Source of the DNA: Rhizodiscina lignyota
Lineage: Eukaryota
DNA length: 64,000 nt
Assembly: GCA_010015805.1 (NCBI GenBank)
Contig: ML978123.1
Coordinates: forward strand, 2,604,001-2,668,000
Reading direction: 5' to 3'
Positions 52,739 to 64,000 of the stretch are shown here, piece by piece (position 1 is the stretch's first letter; each line of letters starts with the position of its first letter). The notes below the pieces were generated by a model. That model was not told where the DNA came from. It did not search any database and saw only the letters and a program-made list of their open reading frames with translations. Made by a program: the position numbers and the translations under genes.

Positions 52739-54715
52739 TTACTGGCCACCGCAGAGGAACGTGGCGAAGTTGACGTTGTTGTTCGCACCATCGCTGAAGT
52801 CCGTGTCCTGCAGACAGATGCTGCCATTGAAGCTCGCGAGCAGACCAAGCTCGGCAGAGGGACCGGCGCTGCCACCGCACGTGTTGTCGGGGAAGAAGCG
52901 GATCGTGCAGTCGGGGAGGTCGGTGAACTGGACGCTGTCGAGACCGCCTGCACCGCCGGCGTTCACAGGCTGGCAGCTACCGTCAGCGGGAACAGAGATC
53001 GGGGTGTTCGTGTTGATGACGCTGGCGTCAAGGTTCTGGCCGCAGTTGGTGTCAGAGAAGGACGTGAAGCTGATGGTCTGGACGGGAGCGGCCGGAGCGG
53101 GGGTGATGGTACCAGCATCAATCGTGGTCGCGGTGCTGGAAGAGCCGGAGGAGTCCGTTGTGGAAGAGCTGGAGGAGTCCGTTGGGGCAGAGCCGGCGAT
53201 GGTGACGCATGTGCTGAAGAGCTGGGTGGAGGTGGAGAGGATGGCCTTCTTGTTGGGGAGGTCATTCACGTTGCCGACACCGCCGAATGCATCGAGCTCA
53301 GCAGCAAGGCCGACATCGAAGTTCACACCGAGCTGAGCGTTAGGATCACCGCAGACACCGCCTTCGGAAGCAGCGTTGGCGGAGAGATCCATGGTGACCT
53401 CCGGAGCACTCAGGGACAAACCAGCAGCAGCACCCTTGCCGAAAGCCTCAACGTCGATAGCCAGGTCAATGCGAGGGCCGACAGAGCCGGAGACGGAGAC
53501 GCTGCCATCGAGGGTGGGTCCGATAGGAGTGAAGGTGGGGTTGAAGCCGTTGAAAGCGTTCTGGGTGGAGTCGAAGAGGTCGATTCTGGCAAGAGAACTA
53601 TCGGGAATACTCATATCCACACCAAACGAGAGGTCAACCTCGGCAGTAACCTCGGTGATTCCGACAACAGCGACAACGTTCAAGCTAGGGCCGATGCTGC
53701 CGATGGCCGGAATGCTGAAACCACCTGGGAGCGCGAGATGGTCAACAAGAGGGAAGGTGTCCGAGATAGCGTCGGTCAACTGCGCAGAGAGCTTGAAGTC
53801 AAGAGTGACGGATGCGCCAACGCCGCTAGGAGTGAGCGAAAGCTCAACCTTAGGGGTGTCGGTGTTACCACCGATATTAACATCAAAATTTAGAGTCCCA
53901 CGTGTAGCGCAGTTATTACAGTCAAGCTCAGCGCTAACGCTGTCGCTCAACTGCTTGCTGAAAATTTGGCCGGAAAAGTCGTGGCCGACACCAATCGGAA
54001 TGTTCTTGTCGATATTCGGAATCGGTAGAGATATGCCGAGAAAACGCCTCTCGAGCTCGCGCTTCTCCTTCTCTTGCTTCTCGAGCTCCTGCGCGTTTCC
54101 GATACCAGCACTGGAGAAGTGGAGGTTGAAGGTGTGAAGACCCTCCTCCCAAGTCACCTTCTCGGTCTTGAACGTTGCCGTATTGCCGTTGAACGAAACA
54201 CCAGTGGCCTTGAATGGCTGGCGCGGGTTGTCTCCACAGTTAGGGGCATTTGTGACCAGGAGAATGCTTCGTCCACCTTGGTTGACCCAACCGAAAGAGT
54301 TCTTCGCAGCGTTCATCAGCGGCTGGCTCTTGAAGGTGAATGCGACAGATTTGCCGTCGGCGCTGCAAGAAGTGCTCTTCAGCTGGCTGGAGAACTTCTC
54401 CATGGACAAGACACGATCGTTGTCACCACCGGCATAGGCCGTCAGATTGGCGTTGGGGTGATTGGGATCCTTGCCCCAGTACCAGCTGTCAGCGGAGACC
54501 AAGTCAACGCCAACTGGATCATCGCGTCTCGTAAGTCCCCTGAGTGCTGGCACGTTGTGCGAGACGGGTTGCAGCTCCGTGATGTCCGGACGAGGGGCGC
54601 GCTTGGTGACAATCTCCATAGTTTTCGTCTCGTGGACGGGCGTAGCTGCAACATTGCTAACAAAGCTAGACAGAGCTAGCGCAGAAACAGCAGAAGACAC
54701 AGCGTTAAAAAGCAT
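52739..54715 (-). CDS. Secreted 658-aa protein: signal peptide, dibasic sites, beta-rich core, Ser/Thr linker and small Cys-containing C-terminal domain
   Basis: Single long codon-biased ORF. Signal peptide MLFNAVSSAVSALALSSFVSNVAA, KR/RR sites, a DCNNC motif and an S/T-rich spacer. TATATAA about 200 bp upstream. Confidence 0.8.
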   Translation of the reverse strand: MLFNAVSSAVSALALSSFVSNVAATPVHETKTMEIVTKRAPRPDITELQPVSHNVPALRGLTRRDDPVGVDLVSADSWYWGKDPNHPNANLTAYAGGDNDRVLSMEKFSSQLKSTSCSADGKSVAFTFKSQPLMNAAKNSFGWVNQGGRSILLVTNAPNCGDNPRQPFKATGVSFNGNTATFKTEKVTWEEGLHTFNLHFSSAGIGNAQELEKQEKEKRELERRFLGISLPIPNIDKNIPIGVGHDFSGQIFSKQLSDSVSAELDCNNCATRGTLNFDVNIGGNTDTPKVELSLTPSGVGASVTLDFKLSAQLTDAISDTFPLVDHLALPGGFSIPAIGSIGPSLNVVAVVGITEVTAEVDLSFGVDMSIPDSSLARIDLFDSTQNAFNGFNPTFTPIGPTLDGSVSVSGSVGPRIDLAIDVEAFGKGAAAGLSLSAPEVTMDLSANAASEGGVCGDPNAQLGVNFDVGLAAELDAFGGVGNVNDLPNKKAILSTSTQLFSTCVTIAGSAPTDSSSSSTTDSSGSSSTATTIDAGTITPAPAAPVQTISFTSFSDTNCGQNLDASVINTNTPISVPADGSCQPVNAGGAGGLDSVQFTDLPDCTIRFFPDNTCGGSAGPSAELGLLASFNGSICLQDTDFSDGANNNVNFATFLCGGQ

Positions 54716-56511
54716 GATGGCGGCTCTGAATGATCGATGTAAAAATTGTTCGTAAATCCGAGGGAATGAATCTAGGAAACAACGAAAAAGGAAAAGACGA
54801 AAGGAAACAAGGAAATAAGGAAAACAACAGTTAGGAAATTCGTTTGTTTGCTTTGGATATTCTCTTGTTTGATGGAGAGAAAAACCAGTGGAGGAGGGAA
54901 CCTACATATCTTATATAGCTGAATACCAAGAAGGTGAGATGTCTTGGCTTGCAGGCTGCGAGCGAACATGCCGAACACAGTCTTCTCCACAAAGTCTTCG
55001 TCTAGAAATCGGCATTGTCTAGAATGGGCCAGGACGTAGCAGGGGCACAACCGCAGTGTCCGCACGTGGCGTCGTGGAGTTAAGGTGGCTGCATTGGCCA
55101 TAACCTAAACTTAGGGGCCTCCGGAAGCCACCCGAGAAGGCAAGGGTCGCAGATAAGAAATGAACTGTCCTGGAGTCAAAAATAACCTTAAGTGGTGTGT
55201 AGGCCAATGAGTGGCAAGCTTCACTGTGGTGGTGCAGATTTTGAGTCGAGATGCAGCTGAAAGCGCGGCATCAGCTCAGCACTAAATTTAACGGGTACCT
55301 GACTCGGCGCACCTCCGGTGCCACGTGATCCCACTATTCCCGTTCTATCACTGCTTCCCGATCTTGCTAATCTTGCCTTGCTCCCTCCCCAACCCAGATG
55401 AAGGCCGAAGAAGAACTTACCCATTTCGTCACTGTATCAAAGAAGGCTGGGACTGTGCAGAGGAAAGTGCCATCCCGGGTTGCTTCGAGGACAGGGTGCT
55501 GACCAAGCTTTCTACAAGCTCATGTCTGGCCGCGCTCTCGCGAGCTTCAACCACCACTCGTCCGCAGTTGCCCACCCCTCTCGCCAAGTCGCCAAGATTC
55601 TCGCCGATGATGTGGCTCGTCCTGCTGACCGCCTCTCCGCCTCTCCGCCTCTCGCTCTCAAGCGCAAGCGCCGGTGATTAGTCGGGATCGTAAGGCGGCC
55701 GCTCGTTCGTCGGAGCGAGCACCAGTTCCTACGACAGAACGACAGACTTGACTCTCCAAAGATCTCACCTGTTCTAACCTCTTCGGTAATTCCACCACTA
55801 GCACGGCAGCATTTGTGTCTGCGCCTCTCCGGTTTGAATGATGCATTTTTCCTAATATGGCACCGTGGGTCGGCCACAGAGCTACCCCTTCAACTGACAA
55901 TTTCCACGCGACGCGGAGTTCCATCTCACTCGAATCGCAGCAGCCAACGATTTCACTAGTATCATTGATCACCTATTCGATGCTCATGTCATCCTCGGTC
56001 GCGTGCGTTCCATATCGGGCAACCACTGGCTGGCTCCGTGTAAGACTTAGAATTTGTTATCCAGTCTTCAGCATCGCCCCTTTTGATGTCCTTCCACCAA
56101 AGTGACATTCAAGACCGTTACGACGGCCGCTCCCAGACCTTATCACGTCTTGGCTTGCAATATTTTGGGGCGCGTTGGACAAGCTACAGCATTTGCCAAG
56201 TCGTAGATTAGCGGGATATCGGCTGTCCATCATCCACGGACCACGGCACCACCAACTTCACCGATTCCGAATCGACGTGCCGCCAGTGAGGACAACGGCT
56301 GACTCCGGGGGCTTGTGCACGTTGGCAGCTCTTAATCGACGGCGTCAGTTTATTACGAATTACAGGCAGGTTCTCCAAGAGGCAAGAACGGCTCTTTCGC
56401 AAATGAGAAGTCCAACACTGTCTGGAATTCAATCTAAACGAAGGTGGTACGGATGTGAATAATACAATTATTTCCGCGTAGTCCCTCTTGTCAACTCTCA
56501 TCAAATGGAGC

Positions 56512-58192
56512 CTAGTTGTTACCCTTGCCAGCTGCTTCCTTTGCTGCGATCTGGTTGGTTACATGTCAGAGATATCCTGAATCGAGCGTTCCTCTTATGG
56601 GGATCGGCCTACCTGGGCTTCGGTGCTATACGAGGAAGAAAAATCAGCACTCCGTGTGATATTATCGCGGGTGGGGTAACTTACTGATGCGCTTCACGCT
56701 TGTTATTCTTGTTCGCGGCAGCTTCTTTCGCCGCGATCTAACCTGGTGATTAGAGCACTGTTGCGTTCGGGTAGTACGACGAAACATACCTGAGCTTCGG
56801 TGCTGTAAGACGGAAACCAGATTAGCATCTCCGCCTGCATACATCTGCAAGAGAGTATGACTTACTGATGCGCCTCAGGCTCGCGTTTCTCCCAAGATCC
56901 AAACTCATCGACCTCGCTGTCCCACGGGCCGAACTCATCAGGAGCAGGGACGTCGCGAACCTTGTTGTTGTTCTTGTTGGCAGCAGCTTCCTTAGCTGCG
57001 ATCTGAGCCTCCGTGCTTCATCGAGAACATCGATTAGTGCTGTTCACAGTACCTCTACACGACCAACTCACTGGTGGGCCTCGCGAGCCTGGTGCTTGTT
57101 GGCAGCAGCTTCCTTTGCTGCGATCTGGGCCTCCGTGCTTCACAGAGAGGAACAATTTAGTATAATTTAGGATATCCTCGTGCCGGAGGAAACTTACTGG
57201 TGGGCCTCGCGGGCCTGGTGCTTATTAGCAGCGGCTTCCTTTGCTGCGATCTGGTACCGAAGTAAGTAGGGTGTTAATAGTCGAAGACGGCCGACTGTAC
57301 CTGTGCTTCCGTGCTGCACAGAGAAGAGCGATTAGTACTGTTCAAGGTGTCCTTGCACCACAGGAAACTCACTGGTGGGCCTCGCGAGCCTTGTTGTGGT
57401 TGCCGGCAGCGGCTTCCTTTGCTGCGATCTGGTACAAAGGTAAGTAGGGTATTTATCCTCGAGGACGTTTGACAATACCTGAGCTTCCGTGCTAAACGAC
57501 ACGAATTAGCAAACTTTTCGAATTTGAATACAGGTCCGAAGAACATACTGGTGCGCTTCACGCTTGTCCACCCAAGAGCCGAACTCGTCAACCTCGCTGT
57601 CCCATGGTCCAAATTCATCCGGAGCAGGGGTATCGCGGCGCTGGTTGCCCTTTCCAGCTGCTTCCTTTGCCGCAATCTGGGCTTCGGTGTGATGCGCCTC
57701 ACGCTTGTCAACCCAAGAGCCGAACTCGTCAACCTCACTGTCCCACGGTCCAAATTCGTCTGGAGGAGGAGTGGCACGGCGTTGGTTGCCTTTGCCAGCC
57801 GCTTCCTTCGCCGCAATTTGGGCTTCGGTGTGATGCGCCTCTCGCTTATCGACCCAAGAGCCGAACTCGTCGACCTCGCTATCCCATGGTCCAAATTCAT
57901 CTGGAGGAGGGGTGGCCCGGCGTTGGTTGCCCTTTCCAGCCGCTTCCTTCGCCGCAATCTGGGCTTCGGTGTGATGCCTTTTATCAAACTCTACGTCGGG
58001 AATCATAGCCCTCTCAGCCGGAGAACCCTTGTGATGGATCAGCAAACATCTCCATGAAGGGGATTAACGGATGCGTACAACATAACGTCTCTCTACGTCT
58101 GTACTCGGAACTCCGAGAGCGCGTCCAGCGACAAGAGGACTAGAGGCCAAAAGGCCAAGAACGAAAGCCTGCGTAACAGAGACGGAATACAT
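56512..58192 (-). CDS. Kex2-processed repeat protein (KEP) / putative RiPP precursor; 12 exons, 353 aa
   Basis: Exons 58192-58079, 58027-57549, 57491-57479, 57428-57373, 57313-57301, 57250-57198, 57137-57072, 57015-56866, 56802-56790, 56737-56685, 56625-56613 and 56550-56512. All introns are GT-AG, total 1062 nt, open frame. Signal peptide, then 9x HHTEAQIAAKEAA and 4x PDEFGPWDSEVDEFGSW separated by KR/RR/AR/VR. Confidence 0.9.
57552..57976 (-). repeat. Three near-perfect 141-bp tandem coding repeats within precursor exon 2
   Basis: The 47-aa unit EAHHTEAQIAAKEAAGKGNQRR(A/D)TP(P/A)PDEFGPWDSEVDEFGSWVDKR occurs three times, differing mostly at synonymous sites. Confidence 0.95.
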
Positions 58193-58348
58193 GGCTGCTT
58201 TCGGAAAAGAATGTATACAACTGAAGAAGGATTCAAAAGACTGCCCAGCAGTGGAGTAGAATGCAAATGAAGAGAAGGAATGAGAGCAAATGAGAAGAAA
58301 TGTAAGCTTGAAGTGGCGTGATGAATAACAGCAGACGGCTGAATGGCC

Positions 58349-58355
58349 TTATATA
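58349..58355 (-). promoter_or_regulatory. TATA box of the precursor gene, within the divergent promoter
   Basis: TATATAA on the minus strand about 160 bp upstream of the ATG at 58192, followed by a pyrimidine-rich leader. Confidence 0.5.
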
Positions 58356-58832
58356 TGGTGGACAGGCGCACCGCAGATTCAGTGTGGCTCACCACTTACC
58401 AGTTCGCTAGAGACTACGCGGCGGGAGGAGGCTCGGTTAGTGATTGGATCTTCATTGAGGGATGAAGACTTGTCCGTTGAGTGTTTCCGAGCTGTTCTCA
58501 ATCGCACATCATCGCCGTGGTCCGTCTCCTACGTGGATACTGGTCCTTGCACCGTAACCGCCCGTTTTACACTTCTGATACAAGAAACATGGCGTTCTTG
58601 TCATTCCGTGGTTAGGCCGAAAAAATTGAGGTAAATATATCCGGAACTGTCTCAGGACGAAACTAAGGGGAATAGCATTCCTTTTTGCAATTTTGCTTGT
58701 GCATCGAGTCATTGTATGAGAGATATCGGCTGCTTCGCTGTATCCTCATTTTTCAGATTTTTCTCATTCGCAACTTCCTCAAGCATTCTCATTTCCAATT
58801 TCTTTAAAATACTACCATCGAATTCAGCTACA

Positions 58833-59723
58833 ATGAGTCACAAATATCAGTCTTTACCCTTCGAAGCTGAGAAGCACTATGCGACTCACTCCGATTCCTC
58901 ATCCACAATCGGCGATCCCGACGATCTAGATGCGAAATCAGACCTCGAGTTCGATGAGGTCGAGCTCGGCATCCAAAAACCCTCCCTCAGAGAAAGGCTC
59001 CGGCTATCATGGCTTTGGCCGATCCATGCCATTCTTTTCATGACCTCCTTCACGCTCTTCATGTTCTCAATCACTCTTCAACCATCGACATTACAGCATG
59101 TCGAACAATTCTCCGCCTGGTCACCGGCAGAGGACGCTGTCAGTTACGAAACAGTTCGATTTAACATCACGACGAAAGAAAATCGATTCGTCGGCTCTGG
59201 CCCCGCAGTCGATCAAGCCTGGAGAGAAATTTCATACGATGTTGGCGACCAATGGCTGTCTAAGACCGACCTCGCGAGGCTCGGCATGCCTGAGACTTCC
59301 GTGAAGGTAGACCACCCTCAGACAGGTGAGGAAGGTTACCGTGTAGGAATGGAGGTATTTCACCAGCTCCACTGCCTCAACCTTCTCCGAAGGGTGACGT
59401 ACAAAGAGTACTACGAGCCACTCGGGGGTGAGTTTGCGGGTGGGCGCAAGGAACTGCAGGAGCATACAGGTAAACACTTTCGTCCCCCCTTTGGTTGAAC
59501 AGCACTGAACAAGCGTATAGACCATTGCATCGAAGTACTCAGGCTAAACTTGCTCTGTAACGCGGACATTGGTGTCTTTACGCTCTACATGGTGCCCGGA
59601 GATCCATTGGCATGGCCCGAGCTCAACTCCAAACATGTATGCCGGAATTTCGATGGCGTGCGGCAGTGGGCACTTGACAACTCGGTGGGAAACATGGAAG
59701 CGGGCGACTTAGTGAACAGTTGA
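58833..59723 (+). CDS. UstYa/DUF3328-family oxidase 1 (exons 58833-59469, 59521-59723)
   Basis: N-terminal TM helix, GPAVDQAWREI, first HxxHC (VFHQLHCLNLLR), second HxxHC across the intron (HTDHCIEVLRLNLLCNADI), and HVCRNFDGVRQWA. Confidence 0.93.
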
Positions 59724-60753
59724 AGCCAAGGTCAAGCGACGATGTAACTGTACTCCGTAGAATAGGGAGAAATGGCACAATTTTATGAAACGTCGGCATC
59801 GCTTTAATCGATTCATGTTCCAACCAGCAACGGGGAAGACTGCTCGAGCCTTCAAGTGCCACCTTCTTGTTACAAACATTAGCTAATGGTTGCCGTGTAC
59901 ATGCTGTTTGTTTAAGCTCGACGCTTAAGGTTGATGTTAGTGATGACGCCTTTGTGGAGAAATGCTATTAGCCGTCGAAACGTCGCCCCACAGTCTGTGA
60001 CATCTCGCTTAGCGAAACTAGCCACATTAACCCCTTTTTCTCCCTTGCAACAACATCCCATAAATCTCGCTTTCGGGCCATTTTGTGAGGACTCGTTACA
60101 GAAGTCCGGTCTCTATCCGGAAAACCGGTCGACGGGTGAGACTCGATTGGCTCCTGTCCATCTCCATCAGCGTGAACCCCTCCGCTCTGAAACGATGTCT
60201 CGGCTCCTAGCGCTCGTCAAAAGGCGCCGTCCAGGTCCTTTGTTTGACATTGCAAGGTCGGGGACTGCCAGATCAGGATACAAAAAACAATTGTGAGCTA
60301 ATTAACCCGTTTGGCGCCTCCGAGTCAAGCGCGTCTCCGACTGGTCGTCTGTGAATTCCGACCAGCCGCCGTCTTTACAGCGCACACCATCGCACCTCAA
60401 ACAGCGCCATCGGGGCTCTTCTGACTGTGCTGTTAATGTGGATCTGACAGCGTCTGTTACAACTGACCGTGAGCAAAATTGAGTGCAAACATGTTTCTTG
60501 TCTCAGCAATACGGACTTTTAGTCGAGATAATGGCTCGGTAGTTATCTTCCACCAGAGCAGACGGCAGAAGGTGTGCACCCAACCACACGTTCACTGTTT
60601 TCCGCCCTGATACTTCCTTTCGCATACTATAGTAATTTGGTCTGAATTTCCGAGACTCTGAGAGTCCAGTCTTCTATTCAGCTTGACCGTTTTCTATCGT
60701 GCACTTCCATTCCACAGACCGAAAAGGAAGACGTTGTCGCTGCCGCCTTACGA

Positions 60754-61844
60754 ATGGATGAGAGCAGATATCCCATGTTGCCGCTCCGTCGGATTGACGA
60801 AGATGAAGAGGAAAAGCTTGGAGATAATTACTCAGACAGCACTAAGATATCGTCGAGATCCACATCACCACACGTTAAGTTTCTGTCACCGATACGAGAA
60901 AGCGAAGAGTCCAACCCAACTTGGTCGCACTTGAGAGAGGGCCAGCCAAGAAGATCAGAAGCCTGCTTGACGTGGGCGCGCTGGGTGGTTGTAGTGTGTC
61001 TGCAGTGCATTCTTATCGCAGCGGTCCTGCTTCCACGGAGTGCGGGTGTGAGAGAGCAGCAAGCGGAACTCCAGGGGAAGACTGTCGAGACCGGAGATGA
61101 CATCAATGGCTTATACAAGACGCGTAAGTCCTCTGAAGATACTGCTGAAGCTATGGAACTAACAGTCTTCATATTAACAGTATCACACTCGTACGAGTAC
61201 CTAACATTCGACGCTGAGAAGTTCGTTCCGAACATGACCACGAACGCCAATCGGATGGAAGTGAGGAGAAATTGGGATATGCTCATGCCGTGTAAGTATT
61301 TCATGAGCCATTGCTCTTCCCATCTCCTGTCTGCCATTCTTCTTTGACATCTCGTCCTGGTGTCTCAATCCGTTCCGACGCTAATTGAAATAAATAGTGG
61401 GAAGTGGTAGCGTCGCAATCCCGAACTATCGAGACCACCCTCTCCTCGGGAATCCCATTACAGATGACCCAATCCGCTCCGGCCCCTTGTTTGAGGCTTC
61501 CTGGACACACTCTTTACATTGTGTAAGTGCCTATCGTTCATCCTCTATCTCGCACCGCCGAACACATTACCAACACTGTGCAGCTATACTACGTTGTGGA
61601 CTCCTACCACCAACTCATCGTCAACGGCCGTAGTGATGTCGACAACCCATATCATGCCACCCATTGCTTCGAGTACTTGCGCACAAGCATTGTGTGCAAC
61701 CTCGACATGACGCTCGAAGGAGAGCAATCGACAGGGGCCGATAAAGAGAGGGGACAGCCGCATGTGTGCCGGAACCGTGAGGAAGCCGTCAAGTGGATCG
61801 AGGACAGGAGAGTGGATGACATGCAAGATATTGTCGGGCCATAA
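60754..61844 (+). CDS. UstYa/DUF3328-family oxidase 2, four exons
   Basis: TM helix, NWDMLMP..GSV, WTHSLHC, HATHCFEYLRTSIVCNLDMTLEG and HVCRNREEAVKW: two HxxHC motifs. Confidence 0.92.
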
Positions 61845-62387
61845 ATGCAAAGGTATCCCGCGAATGAGGACAATGCGTCTGCTGGTTTCAGATCGCCACT
61901 CGAGAAGAGCTGTGGCTGTCGTCAAGGAGACGATTGCCGAATTCTAGCGTTCCTTCGCAGAACATTGTGCTTAAGGCTGACAAGGCTTCTGCGGAAGTTG
62001 AACTGCTCCTCCACTGGGGGTGTGCGCGGGTGTTGCTGTTACTTCTGCCGAGCTCGAACCCCTTCTCGGCGATGTGGGTGGCTGGCTCGGAAGATGCTTC
62101 CAAGCTCAAATCACTTCGCAACAAACAATGCAGCTTGTGCAATAGTTGCATGTACTGAAATCAAATACAATTCCATCGCCTTACAGGCCGCAATAATTCT
62201 CTGACATTCATGGATGCCTCAGTCTGCGATCAGCTATGCCTATCATTGCAGTCAAAGAACAAACAACCAAGAGATAGAAAAGGCATATGATAACGACACA
62301 TCGATATATGTATCATGCATGTTGAAAAGCTCGCTAAAGTCTACAGGATATCCTACTTATTACATGAAACTGACCAAGCTCCAAACC

Positions 62388-64000
62388 TTAACTCCGGTTG
62401 ACAGCATGCTTACTCATTTGCCGTATCCTATGTCCATAGAAGTAAAACACATACGGTACGGGTACCAAAAGCGCACTGATGGCCCCCAAAATCGTCAGAG
62501 TCCAATGCACTCCCATATTCTCGTAGAACGGAATGCCCACGACCGTCATCCCGCCAGCAGCCCAGTACCGGATCAACGTCACGCTCGCGAGTGCAGAAGC
62601 GCTGTACACCTCATACACATCGATGATGTACATGTACGAGCTGATGAATATGCACAAGACGCCATATCCGAAAAGCACAGAGGCCAGGAGCGGTGACCAG
62701 ATAGAAATTGACGGGTAGCTCGTCCATCCCATCCAAAACAGTGACACCGGTATCGCGACTGCGCCGCCTAGCATCGCGAACCAAAGGCGGAATTCTGGTG
62801 GCAGTTTGCTGCCACCTTCTTCTTCGATCTTGCGCAAGTCGCGCTTCGCCCATCTGTAAATGATTGGGACTGGTCCCATGGAGGCGACGAGTCCCACGCC
62901 GATGCCGAGGAACAGGAGACCGGTGATACCGACCGAAGTGCCGTGGACGTCAGCAAAGATGTATTCGTAGCCGTCGAAGAATGTAAAGAGGACGATATAT
63001 ATGACCGTCAGATATAGCGCTACGAGCATTATAATCGGTTCGGTCGCGGTAAGGACAATTGGGCGATAGAGCGCTGTCCGGAGACGTGTGAGGAAAGTTT
63101 CGTCGCGGATCTCAACGGCTGCACGATATCTGTCATCCCCAGTGACTCGGCGCAGGTGGGCAGCGCGCCATTTGAGTAAGATCGGAGCATATGTTTCGGG
63201 TTGGAAGAGGAAGAGGAGGGCAAGAATAAGGCCAGCCATGAGGAGCGTGCTCCACTCAGTCCAACGCCAACTGACTACGTTGCTTTGCACAATGAAACCG
63301 CCCATGACCTTTTTGGGACGTCAGCTATGTTTACATCATCAAGAGGGAATGATTAGCTTACCGGTCCAACAACGGTCCCCTCAAATGCCATAGACGCAAA
63401 GAAGGGGAAAGCAATAATGCGTTGCATAGGCTTCCATAAGTCTGCAATACTGCCGCCTGCGCACACTAATGGAGTGCTGCCAAAAATGCCGGCGATGAAG
63501 CGGAAGGCGAGCTGAGCTCCAATGTTTGGTGCGAGTCCTGAAGCCATGATGAAGATAGAGAAGAGGAGCATTGTGACGATGTAAACTGGGTTGCGCCCGA
63601 CGGTCTCAGAAAATGGTCCTGCGAATAGTGCTCCAGCTCCGAAGCCAATGAGATAGATACCTGGTATCGTAAGTCAGTAAGGAGTGTTCGAATATATATT
63701 ACGGGGGCCCAAGCGGGCCACATACCTGTCGCCAGACTCTCCGTCACTTGGCTAACACCAAACTCAGCGGCAGCCTCGTGGACGGCGGTACTATCAATAC
63801 TGGCTGCAACGCTAACGACAAAGGCGACAGCTGCAACCATTATTGTTGCGAAGATTCTGATACCATAGCCCCAATTGTGTGGGTTCATAGGGTCGTCCGG
63901 TCCTTGATACCCTACAACGAACACCTGTTGGCTGACGCCAGGTAGCCCTTTACCCTCATGCGTCGTCCTCGAGCGTATGTCGATGCCAGTTAAAGAGTGT
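62388..64000 (-). CDS. MFS drug:H+ antiporter (DHA1-like); 5' end beyond the window
   Basis: Motifs GPDDPMNPHNW, SETVGRNP, WRWTEW, QPETYAP, PPEFRL and YIIDVYEVYSASALA, with a multi-TM pattern. Confidence 0.92.

Follow-up and report, generated by a model that had tools for sequence, protein, structure and literature searches.

The 64-kb stretch of the Rhizodiscina lignyota genome analysed here (the window) encodes a repeat protein beside two UstYa/DUF3328 oxidases and an MFS transporter, raising the question of what peptide, if any, these genes make, and whether they form a new cluster of the dikaritin type, as the first-pass annotation had proposed. Our analysis suggests that the window probably carries the Rhizodiscina lignyota copy of a widespread three-gene module, composed of a type G-3 Kex2-processed precursor (KEP) and two oxidases, Y1 and Y2, that modify its peptide. 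The module is probably a conserved one of filamentous ascomycetes, with Y1 and Y2 predicted to be paralogous, membrane-anchored, copper-dependent oxidases.

The proposed architecture of a repeat precursor, two PF11807 oxidases and an MFS transporter proved to be real, as judged from gene models and Pfam matches (Table 1). Joining the 12 precursor exons by coordinates yielded an open coding sequence of 1062 nt, with GT..AG borders in all 11 introns, an ATG at 58192 and a stop codon ending at 56512, the start coordinate of the first-pass annotation. This open spliced model and the tandem repeats detected by TRF (a 141-bp unit in 3.0 copies at 57552-57977 with 89% matches, inside exon 2, and a 126-bp unit in 2.3 copies at 56973-57253) bear out the repeat protein. 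Exon 2 contains three complete His-His (HH) cores, the opening codons of the next core, and three acidic elements, and each of the microexons encodes (H)TEAQ, the invariant core being rebuilt at every predicted splice. The encoded protein consists of a hydrophobic, signal-like N-terminus (judged by eye, and also hydrophobic in the homologues), a short propeptide, nine copies of the core HHTEAQIAAK and four copies of the acidic element DEFGPWDSEVDEFGSW; HH stands at the start of every core, and Tyr is absent after residue 38. The precursor is probably a secreted repeat protein from which a single invariant peptide, tipped with histidine, is released in numerous copies. Its earlier description as punctuated by dibasic sites applies to nine of the 13 predicted cut sites, which are KR or RR, but not to the other four, which are AR or VR.

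Table 1. Features of the precursor-oxidase locus in the window.
Feature	Position	Strand	Description
Precursor gene	56512..58192	-	12 exons, predicted spliced model, 353 aa
Precursor exon 2	57549..58027	-	Unbroken part; end of propeptide, repeats
Intron-bearing repeat region of precursor	56613..57491	-	Four 13-nt microexons, predicted
Precursor 13-nt microexons	57479-57491, 57301-57313, 56790-56802, 56613-56625	-	
Divergent intergenic region, precursor/Y1	58193..58832	.	640 bp, presumed shared promoter
Y1, UstYa/DUF3328 gene	58833..59723	+	2 exons (58833-59469, 59521-59723), 279 aa
Y2, UstYa/DUF3328 gene	60754..61844	+	Exons 60754-61123, 61181-61291, 61398-61522, 61584-61844; 288 aa
MFS transporter gene	62388..64000	-	Convergent with Y2; 5' end past the window

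The conserved unit of the precursor family is the decapeptide HHTEAQIAAK, which is new in this analysis. The exact sequence occurs in 120 of 140 units family-wide, and a core His is replaced by Tyr in only five of 223 units. Among the nine cores of the window gene, nine nucleotide positions are variable, all of them third codon positions, and pairwise comparison gave 154 synonymous and no non-synonymous codon differences. The four copies of the acidic element gave 40 synonymous and no non-synonymous pairwise differences; this purifying selection, and the presence of aromatic Trp and Phe as in known cross-linked cores, would fit the Trp-bearing DEFGPWDSxxDEFGSW as the true modified core, with the HH units as spacers or leaders. 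Such an exchange of roles is highly improbable, however, given that numerous family members, loci L005 and L011 among them, lack the element yet keep HHTEAQIAAK, Y1 and Y2, that L007 and L010 lack it and retain Y1 (their contigs stop before Y2 could appear), and that the Botrytis-group proteins also do without it. The strongly Lys-rich tails and the acidic spacers, such as DVEVEAR, of many homologues might instead suggest a polyprotein of cationic antimicrobial peptides, in which the spacers neutralise the Lys-rich peptides before cleavage. Against this, a typical window unit has two Lys and two Glu when the terminal RR is discounted, and therefore a net charge of about zero; conservation resides in the N-terminal decapeptide and not in charge, and the two oxidases would be left unexplained, making an antimicrobial polyprotein a very unlikely solution.

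The linkers ahead of the cores follow a strict rule. All 244 HH sites, in 54 proteins, are preceded by Arg and zero to five X-Ala/X-Pro dipeptides (none in 59 sites). A reversed dipeptide rule was satisfied by five of 185 non-empty linkers, and the same rule ahead of DEFGPW by two of 72, so that the N-terminal linkers of the acidic element obey no trimming rule, which also argues against its being the core. The STE13 signature is given as XA/XP following the cut site in the accessible text of Le Marquer 2019 (PMC6339444), and the Arg plus X-Ala/X-Pro runs read as a Kex2/Ste13 signature, trimming of which would expose an N-terminal His-His. Dibasic sites precede the core in 82 of 140 cases family-wide, with AR, ER, PR, TR, SR, NR or GR in the rest, and therefore Kex2 alone may not account for the cutting. 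Dipeptide linkers of strictly even length would be pointless in an uncut protein, and they weigh, together with synteny kept across classes, against a secreted repeat protein that stays uncut, whether helical or disordered and perhaps able to bind metal, and that was placed beside DUF3328 genes by chance; the Ala/Lys/Glu-rich repeats would form helices, and DUF3328 genes are numerous in ascomycetes, but we give this explanation very little weight.

The perfect signature across the family does favor a second class of product, namely secreted linear peptides that carry no modification and resemble alpha-pheromones or hormones, made by Kex2, Ste13 and Kex1 alone while the UstYa genes act elsewhere. 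According to Le Marquer 2019 (PMC6339444), the STE13 signature is missing from the known precursors of cyclic peptides, and KEPs of the kind seen here are suggested to give unmodified hormones. The absence of Tyr from the cores points in the same direction, as does core invariance across classes, which fits a conserved receptor. The evidence against linear hormones comes from the oxidases and their genomic association with the precursor.

Both oxidases matched PF11807 above the Pfam gathering cut-off of 25 bits, in agreement with the first-pass annotation: Y1 through its two exons (E 3.3e-29 and 1.6e-17; 102.7 and 64.5 bits) and Y2 through its last exon (E 1.2e-9; 38.8 bits). The two intact HxxHC motifs claimed for each enzyme are present in the spliced models, as HQLHC at 177 and HTDHC at 211 in Y1, whose second motif is split by the intron, and as HSLHC at 198 and HATHC at 226 in Y2. 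Ahead of the domain, a single stretch of 19 residues is strongly hydrophobic in each protein (Kyte-Doolittle mean 1.8 in Y1 and 2.5 in Y2), corresponding to putative helices at approximately residues 64-82 and 75-93, respectively. Orthologues of Y1 span 100% of exon 1, a public partial model is 100% identical to Y1, and orthologous exons of Y2 were found in loci L001, L005 and L011. Several Y1 orthologues bear the UniRef name 'Cyclochlorotine biosynthesis protein O', an automatic label.

Y1 and Y2 both lie within 4.3 kb of the precursor start codon. The head-to-head arrangement of precursor and Y1 was as described earlier, with the Y1 ATG at 58833 following the 640-bp gap. This layout is conserved in relatives: a Y1 orthologue is divergently upstream of the precursor in six of the seven metagenome loci with enough upstream DNA (five of six independent lineages), and in three of the four metagenome loci with 10-kb flanks Y2 comes after Y1, with gene order and orientation unchanged. 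The synteny holds with or without the DEFGPW element, and adjacent locus tags are found in the named genomes of Fonsecaea multimorphosa (Z520_07039/07040), Varicellaria rhodocarpa (MMC14_001557/001556) and Xylogone (902211/902212). Conservation of precursor, Y1 and Y2 as neighbors in metagenome loci, and the adjacent locus tags in named genomes, speak against linear hormones; locus L006, in which no UstYa relative was seen within 10 kb on either side of the precursor, would fit them. The second DUF3328 gene and the transporter reported after Y1 were upheld by Pfam (MFS_1, E 2.5e-12, for the transporter). An MFS exporter thus adjoins the module in the Rhizodiscina lignyota genome; it shares 27-37% identity with MFS genes near the module elsewhere, and because of this low identity it is not a conserved module member. 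Its reading frame is still open at 64000, and the cluster is therefore cut by the right edge of the window, as had been suspected. No tyrosinase, methyltransferase or peptidase genes were seen in the 64-kb window.

A search of 1.84 billion cluster representatives with the uninterrupted exon 2 stretch as query returned 29 precursor relatives at E<=1e-3, and for 23 of these the match reached E<=1e-10. Named members of the family come from Eurotiomycetes, Lecanoromycetes, Sordariomycetes and Leotiomycetes, in addition to the Dothideomycete of the window. The survey of Umemura 2020 (PMC7329392), in its accessible text, lists a KEP type G-3 (#6) with a di-histidine motif in 20 genera, and our named homologues cover nine of these: Botryotinia, Botrytis, Lachnellula, Trichoderma, Scytalidium, Talaromyces, Fonsecaea, Capronia and Cladophialophora. 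In the part of its Table S2 that we consulted, all eight species checked had a type-6 entry flagged for DUF3328. Because of the shared taxa, the HH motif and the single type-6 entry per species checked, the window precursor is most likely a member of G-3, with which it shares the predicted character of a secreted Kex2-site repeat protein with DUF3328 genes nearby. Contrary to the earlier claim, the kind of precursor is thus most likely not new, having been catalogued in 2020. The text of the survey gives no core sequence, processing rule, pair of conserved oxidase paralogues or product for G-3, and Rhizodiscina is not among its taxa. The claim of an undescribed product stands, in that literature searches turned up no paper describing one. 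According to the same text, DUF3328 occurs within 15 genes of 57 of the 64 G-3 KEPs (seven are without), whereas it is hardly ever found near the genes of pheromone KEPs. Modification by Y1 and Y2 is hence our preferred reading, with unmodified linear hormones as an unlikely alternative.

If the module works as we propose, the X-Ala/X-Pro dipeptides would be trimmed by a Ste13-type dipeptidyl aminopeptidase, freeing nine peptides that each start with His-His-Thr-Glu-Ala-Gln-Ile-Ala-Ala-Lys, followed by a tail that is rich in Ala and Lys but varies in sequence; the acidic spacers would also come free as peptides. In the lumen of the Golgi or endosome, the core would be oxidatively modified by Y1 and Y2, in all likelihood on the His-His terminus or close to it, and the modified product would then be exported. 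Candidate reaction types for the two enzymes include hydroxylation, halogenation, cross-linking and desaturation.

A weak relative from Sporothrix may extend this scheme. Its units start R-(E/A)P-HH-AGKKTGKK, with acidic DVEVE-type spacers between them, and it differs from the window family in lacking TEAQIAAK, so that the two have no more in common than the layout and a His-His start that is unmasked. In Umemura 2020 (PMC7329392), an HH motif is likewise listed for KEP type G-8 (#15), with DUF3328 near 45 of its 49 members, and Sporothrix species have type-15 entries flagged for DUF3328; we infer that the Sporothrix relative belongs to G-8. It is conceivable, although we hold this only tentatively, that G-3 and G-8 have in common a His-His at the N-terminus, exposed through Arg-directed cleavage together with trimming by Ste13 and modified by two binuclear-copper DUF3328 enzymes that always accompany the precursor, through non-Tyr chemistry (e.g., a histidine-derived cross-link or oxidation), yielding a signal or copper-binding peptide conserved across at least five Pezizomycotina classes. 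Processed like pheromones and tailored like dikaritins, such peptides would constitute a new class of fungal RiPPs.

To our knowledge, fungal repeat precursors beside DUF3328 oxidases number in the thousands, with products known for a handful, all Tyr-based or non-ribosomal. G-3, which the 2020 survey records from 20 genera, is among the most widespread precursor types, yet is without Tyr, and the start of its released peptide is now predicted precisely enough for testing. Modification of the His-His terminus by Y1 and Y2 would widen the known chemistry of the DUF3328 family, whose copper dependence has only lately been recognised, and would tie it to a peptide conserved enough for a hormone or metal carrier, as opposed to a lineage-specific toxin.

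Among characterised enzymes, CctR is described in the accessible text of PMC12435403 as an O2-dependent, dimeric protein with binuclear copper bound by an HxxHC(x)nHxxHC motif, a transmembrane-helix anchor and a catalytic domain in the lumen. Compared by described features, Y1 and Y2 resemble CctR, CctO, CctP2, AprY and ApnU in their N-terminal disordered region, putative single transmembrane helix and presumably lumenal HxxHC(x)nHxxHC domain; unlike CctR and other characterised DUF3328 enzymes, they would act on a His-His peptide of ribosomal origin. The locus resembles those of the dikaritins (ustiloxin with UstA/UstYa/UstYb, phomopsin and asperipin-2a) in its signal-like N-terminus, multi-core precursor, UstYa/DUF3328 oxidases and MFS gene, the last being often present in dikaritin clusters. 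The ustiloxin, phomopsin and asperipin-2a cores are cyclised through Tyr, whereas those of the window have none, which excludes Tyr-ether formation of the dikaritin kind; the STE13 signature, perfect here, is reported to be absent from dikaritin precursors. Of the label "dikaritin-type", the multi-core precursor and UstYa oxidases are retained, but the Tyr-free repeats and the STE13 signature do not agree with it, and membership of the dikaritins is doubtful. The processing layout, KR and X-Ala/X-Pro dipeptide runs followed by the mature peptide in many copies, is shared with the precursors of yeast alpha-factor and of alpha-type pheromones in ascomycetes, from which the window precursor differs in its unrelated peptide sequence and in the two adjoining UstYa genes, whose layout is conserved.

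The window contains a real, conserved RiPP-like module made up of a gene for a probably secreted repeat precursor and two neighbouring UstYa/DUF3328 oxidase genes, Y1 and Y2 (table below). Joining the 12 precursor exons by coordinates gave an open predicted coding sequence of 1062 nt (353 aa), with GT starts and AG ends in all 11 introns. A signal-like hydrophobic stretch opens its translation; after this and a short propeptide come nine HHTEAQIAAK cores, whose Ala/Lys/Asn tails vary, and an acidic Trp-bearing element in four copies, DEFGPWDSEVDEFGSW (hereafter DEFGPW element). Tandem Repeats Finder detected two DNA repeats across the gene, and since the 126-bp unit spans introns, whole exon-intron units must have been duplicated. 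Every splice in the predicted model, including those around the microexons, restores the identical decapeptide; this restoration and a homologue-like C-terminus constitute the support for the model. Among the nine cores, nucleotide differences fall at nine sites, every one a third codon position; pairwise codon comparison counts 154 synonymous differences and no non-synonymous one, and the four acidic elements show the same pattern (40 synonymous, 0 non-synonymous). The precursor's Pfam matches, Rpn9_C and DUF591, were dismissed as low-complexity noise, no single stretch passing alone.

Features of the module, its surroundings and related loci (window coordinates unless a locus is named)
Feature	Coordinates	Strand	Basis or remark
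Precursor gene	56512-58192	minus	stop-to-stop ORFs and minus-strand sequence
Four 13-nt microexons	56613-57491	minus	predicted gene model; each codes (H)TEAQ, inside repeat units
126-bp DNA repeat unit	56973-57253		2.3 copies, introns included
141-bp DNA repeat unit	57552-57977		3.0 copies
Y1	58833-59723	plus	2 exons, 279 aa; ATG 640 bp from precursor, opposite strand
Y2	60754-61844	plus	4 exons, 288 aa; next after Y1
MFS gene	62388 to beyond 64000	minus	convergent with Y2; MFS_1 by Pfam
DUF7029/DUF7223 gene	52739-54901	minus	large secreted-looking protein; directly downstream of precursor 3' end
Precursor copy at L006	L006:9407-10306	plus	about 11 HH cores
MBOAT_2 (PF13813) gene at L005	L005:3150-4208	minus	acyltransferase
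MBOAT_2 (PF13813) gene at L011	L011:13732-15567	plus	acyltransferase

Both oxidases match UstYa/PF11807 above the gathering score, and in each protein two HxxHC motifs come after a single strongly hydrophobic segment; in Y1 the second motif is assembled across the intron. The first-pass annotation was thus right about the repeat precursor, its head-to-head placement with a DUF3328 gene, the double motifs of both oxidases and the MFS transporter after the second. Exon 1 of Y1 matches a public Rhizodiscina lignyota model (P0037, 203 aa) at 100% identity over 64% of length; because orthologues span all of exon 1, the public model appears to be N-terminally truncated. The DUF7029/DUF7223 gene, whose product is Ser/Thr-rich in its C-terminal part, was rejected as a module member, having no counterpart beside the module in related loci. 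Further left, among the 14 of 51 listed ORFs that were scanned, lie housekeeping genes (gamma-tubulin complex, thiolase, SDR, AAA ATPase and sugar transporter).

Searching precursor exon 2 against 1.84 billion cluster representatives returned 29 matches at E<=1e-3 and 23 at E<=1e-10, of which 26 of the 29 were used, three long proteins (572-1602 aa, 29-41% identity) being left out. Word-index searches added nine longer relatives, and a spacer-only relative used as query added 39 more; none of the relatives from these two routes carries a precomputed Pfam domain. Named members come from Capronia, Fonsecaea, Cladophialophora, Talaromyces, Icmadophila, Varicellaria, Trichoderma, Botrytis/Botryotinia, Lachnellula, Ciborinia, Scytalidium and Xylogone. 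Together with R. lignyota, a Dothideomycete of the order Aulographales, the family spans five classes of Pezizomycotina, with class checked for three lineages. Public models of these relatives often run through introns or end early (e.g., P0012, P0015 and P0177).

The decapeptide is the constant part of the family: the exact core occurs in 120 of 140 family units. In a wider count of 223 units from 50 proteins, made with a search pattern that itself partly set core positions 3-7, His occupies position 1 in 219 units and position 2 in 222, the exceptions being Tyr (4 units and 1 unit, respectively). These five substitutions within the His-His pair (P0008, P0010 and others) are single-base changes, and Tyr is the residue used by known UstYa cyclases. 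Three Talaromyces-type relatives (P0031, P0032 and P0167) have one unit with an inserted Thr-rich and His-run segment, in which three or four consecutive His are followed by KGAK/DK repeats. The DEFGPW element is optional, with one half left in Trichoderma and none in the Botrytis group and several metagenome loci. In the alignment, propeptide columns between the signal peptide and the first core (ERRYVGS...A.K.VR..IP..E.R) are conserved across classes, with intron 1 at the same place within them; this stretch could be a leader-like recognition segment.

The sequence preceding the core follows a strict rule. At all 244 HH sites from 54 family proteins, as at all 140 sites of an earlier count, Arg is followed by zero to five dipeptides and then the core, each dipeptide ending in Ala or Pro (e.g., EA, EP, DP, SP, GP-EA, DA-EP-EA-EA-EA); repeats inside one protein are non-independent, but the rule is without exception in any lineage. 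No dipeptide separates Arg from the core at 59 of the 244 sites. As controls, the rule is satisfied by only 2 of 72 linkers before the DEFGPW element, and its reverse by 5 of 185 non-empty linkers. XA/XP dipeptides after a Kex2 site are the STE13 signature described for alpha-pheromone precursors (PMC6339444), and from the same arrangement here we infer that the released peptides would begin with a free His-His. The residue preceding the cleaved Arg is basic at only 82 of 140 sites (the others being AR, ER, PR, TR, SR, NR or GR), so Kex2 may not be the sole endoprotease. The initial description of the window protein as punctuated by dibasic sites holds for 9 of 13 predicted cut sites and fails for the other four.

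A scan of metagenome contigs yielded 11 precursor loci, the flanks of which were compared by tblastn with the window exon translations. A Y1 orthologue lies divergent and upstream of the precursor at six of the seven loci whose upstream DNA is long enough (L001, L005, L007, L008, L010 and L011; last-exon identity 66-82%), equivalent to five of six independent lineages because L007/L010 and L008/L009 are near-identical pairs. Y2 follows in the same order and orientation at three of the four loci with 10-kb flanks (L001, L005 and L011; 59-83% identity). The locus tags of precursor and Y1 orthologue are also adjacent in Fonsecaea multimorphosa, Varicellaria rhodocarpa and Xylogone; in Talaromyces stipitatus and in Trichoderma gracile the two lie on contigs of equal length, which we take to be one and the same contig. 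In Scytalidium lignicola, the precursor and a Y1-like match of only 48% identity are on contigs of different length. No UstYa relative was detected by tblastn within 10 kb of the L006 precursor, even at E<=10; this may be a second, unclustered copy, L006 and L005 being from one metagenome. Around it lie aldehyde dehydrogenase, SDR and HODM-like genes. Loci with and without the DEFGPW element alike have Y1 and Y2, which links the enzymes to the HH core.

Synteny of the proposed cluster extends to precursor, Y1 and Y2 and not to the transporter: MFS genes near the module elsewhere share only 27-37% identity with that of the window, arguing that a non-orthologous exporter was recruited repeatedly rather than conserved, and the MFS gene was rejected as a conserved module member. 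Pfam scans at L001, L005, L006 and L011 covered 59 of the 93 ORFs that reach 130 aa or more; those dropped were for the most part antisense or overlapping frames, among them the ones over the precursor. These scans revealed orthologous MBOAT_2 genes (53% identical) adjoining the module on opposite sides at L005 and L011, both with precursors lacking the DEFGPW element; no such gene was found in the 64-kb window or at L001. They may indicate lineage-specific acylation of the peptide. A GNAT gene at L001 likewise has no counterpart in the window.

Kex2 and Ste13 are late-Golgi enzymes. DUF3328 proteins, membrane-anchored dimers of the Golgi/endosome lumen, are O2-dependent binuclear-copper enzymes with HxxHC(x)nHxxHC as the copper site, and they catalyse hydroxylation, halogenation and cyclisation (PMC12435403). 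Given these locations, cleavage, trimming and oxidation could share compartments, in which the precursor would be cut, relieved of its dipeptides and oxidised. We consider it fairly probable that the module pairs a Kex2-processed precursor of type G-3 with Y1 and Y2 as oxidases of its peptide, the main doubt being whether and how the oxidases act on it.

Among the 7878 Kex2-processed repeat proteins (KEPs) sorted into types by Umemura 2020 (PMC7329392), type G-3 (#6) comprises 64 members from 59 strains and 20 genera, with a di-histidine (HH) motif and, in 57 of the 64, a DUF3328 gene within 15 genes. Its genus list includes 9 of the 14 genera of our named precursor matches, and Table S2 gives type-6 entries with a DUF3328 flag for Capronia epimyces, Talaromyces amestolkiae, T. 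stipitatus, Exophiala spinifera, E. xenobiotica, Fonsecaea multimorphosa, F. monophora and Verruconis gallopava. Rhizodiscina is absent from the survey. The case for assigning the window precursor to G-3 is strong but indirect, built on taxa, the HH motif and the type-6 entries of the species checked. The survey text consulted gives nothing further on G-3, and our literature search found neither later work on the type nor a study of its product, subscription papers and bioRxiv supplements lying outside its reach. The strings HHTEAQIAAK, HHTEAQ, DEFGPWD and DEFGSW retrieved only one unrelated immunology paper and occur nowhere in the supplements of PMC7329392 and PMC6339444; the accessible text of a Trichoderma (PMC7099791) and a lichen (PMC12048977) RiPP paper does not treat the family. 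The cluster was originally proposed as new, but since G-3 is already catalogued, without a described product, it would be a further member and not a new type.

A weak relative from Sporothrix stenoceras (P0176) has units starting R-(E/A)P-HH-AGKKTGKK, with acidic DVEVE-type spacers between them; its layout and unmasked His-His start resemble those of the window family, but the peptide is different. Sporothrix being a G-8 genus, P0176 probably belongs to Umemura's HH type G-8 (#15). The comparison suggests the unmasked His-His as the common feature, and possibly the modified one. Ustiloxin, phomopsin and asperipin-2a use Tyr, whereas the window cores have none, and the precursors of all three lack the STE13 signature, as far as the available text of Le Marquer (PMC6339444) goes, whereas the window family has it. 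The proposed dikaritin-type affiliation is accordingly unproven; with its STE13 signature and DUF3328 neighbours, the family joins pheromone-type processing to dikaritin-type enzymes.
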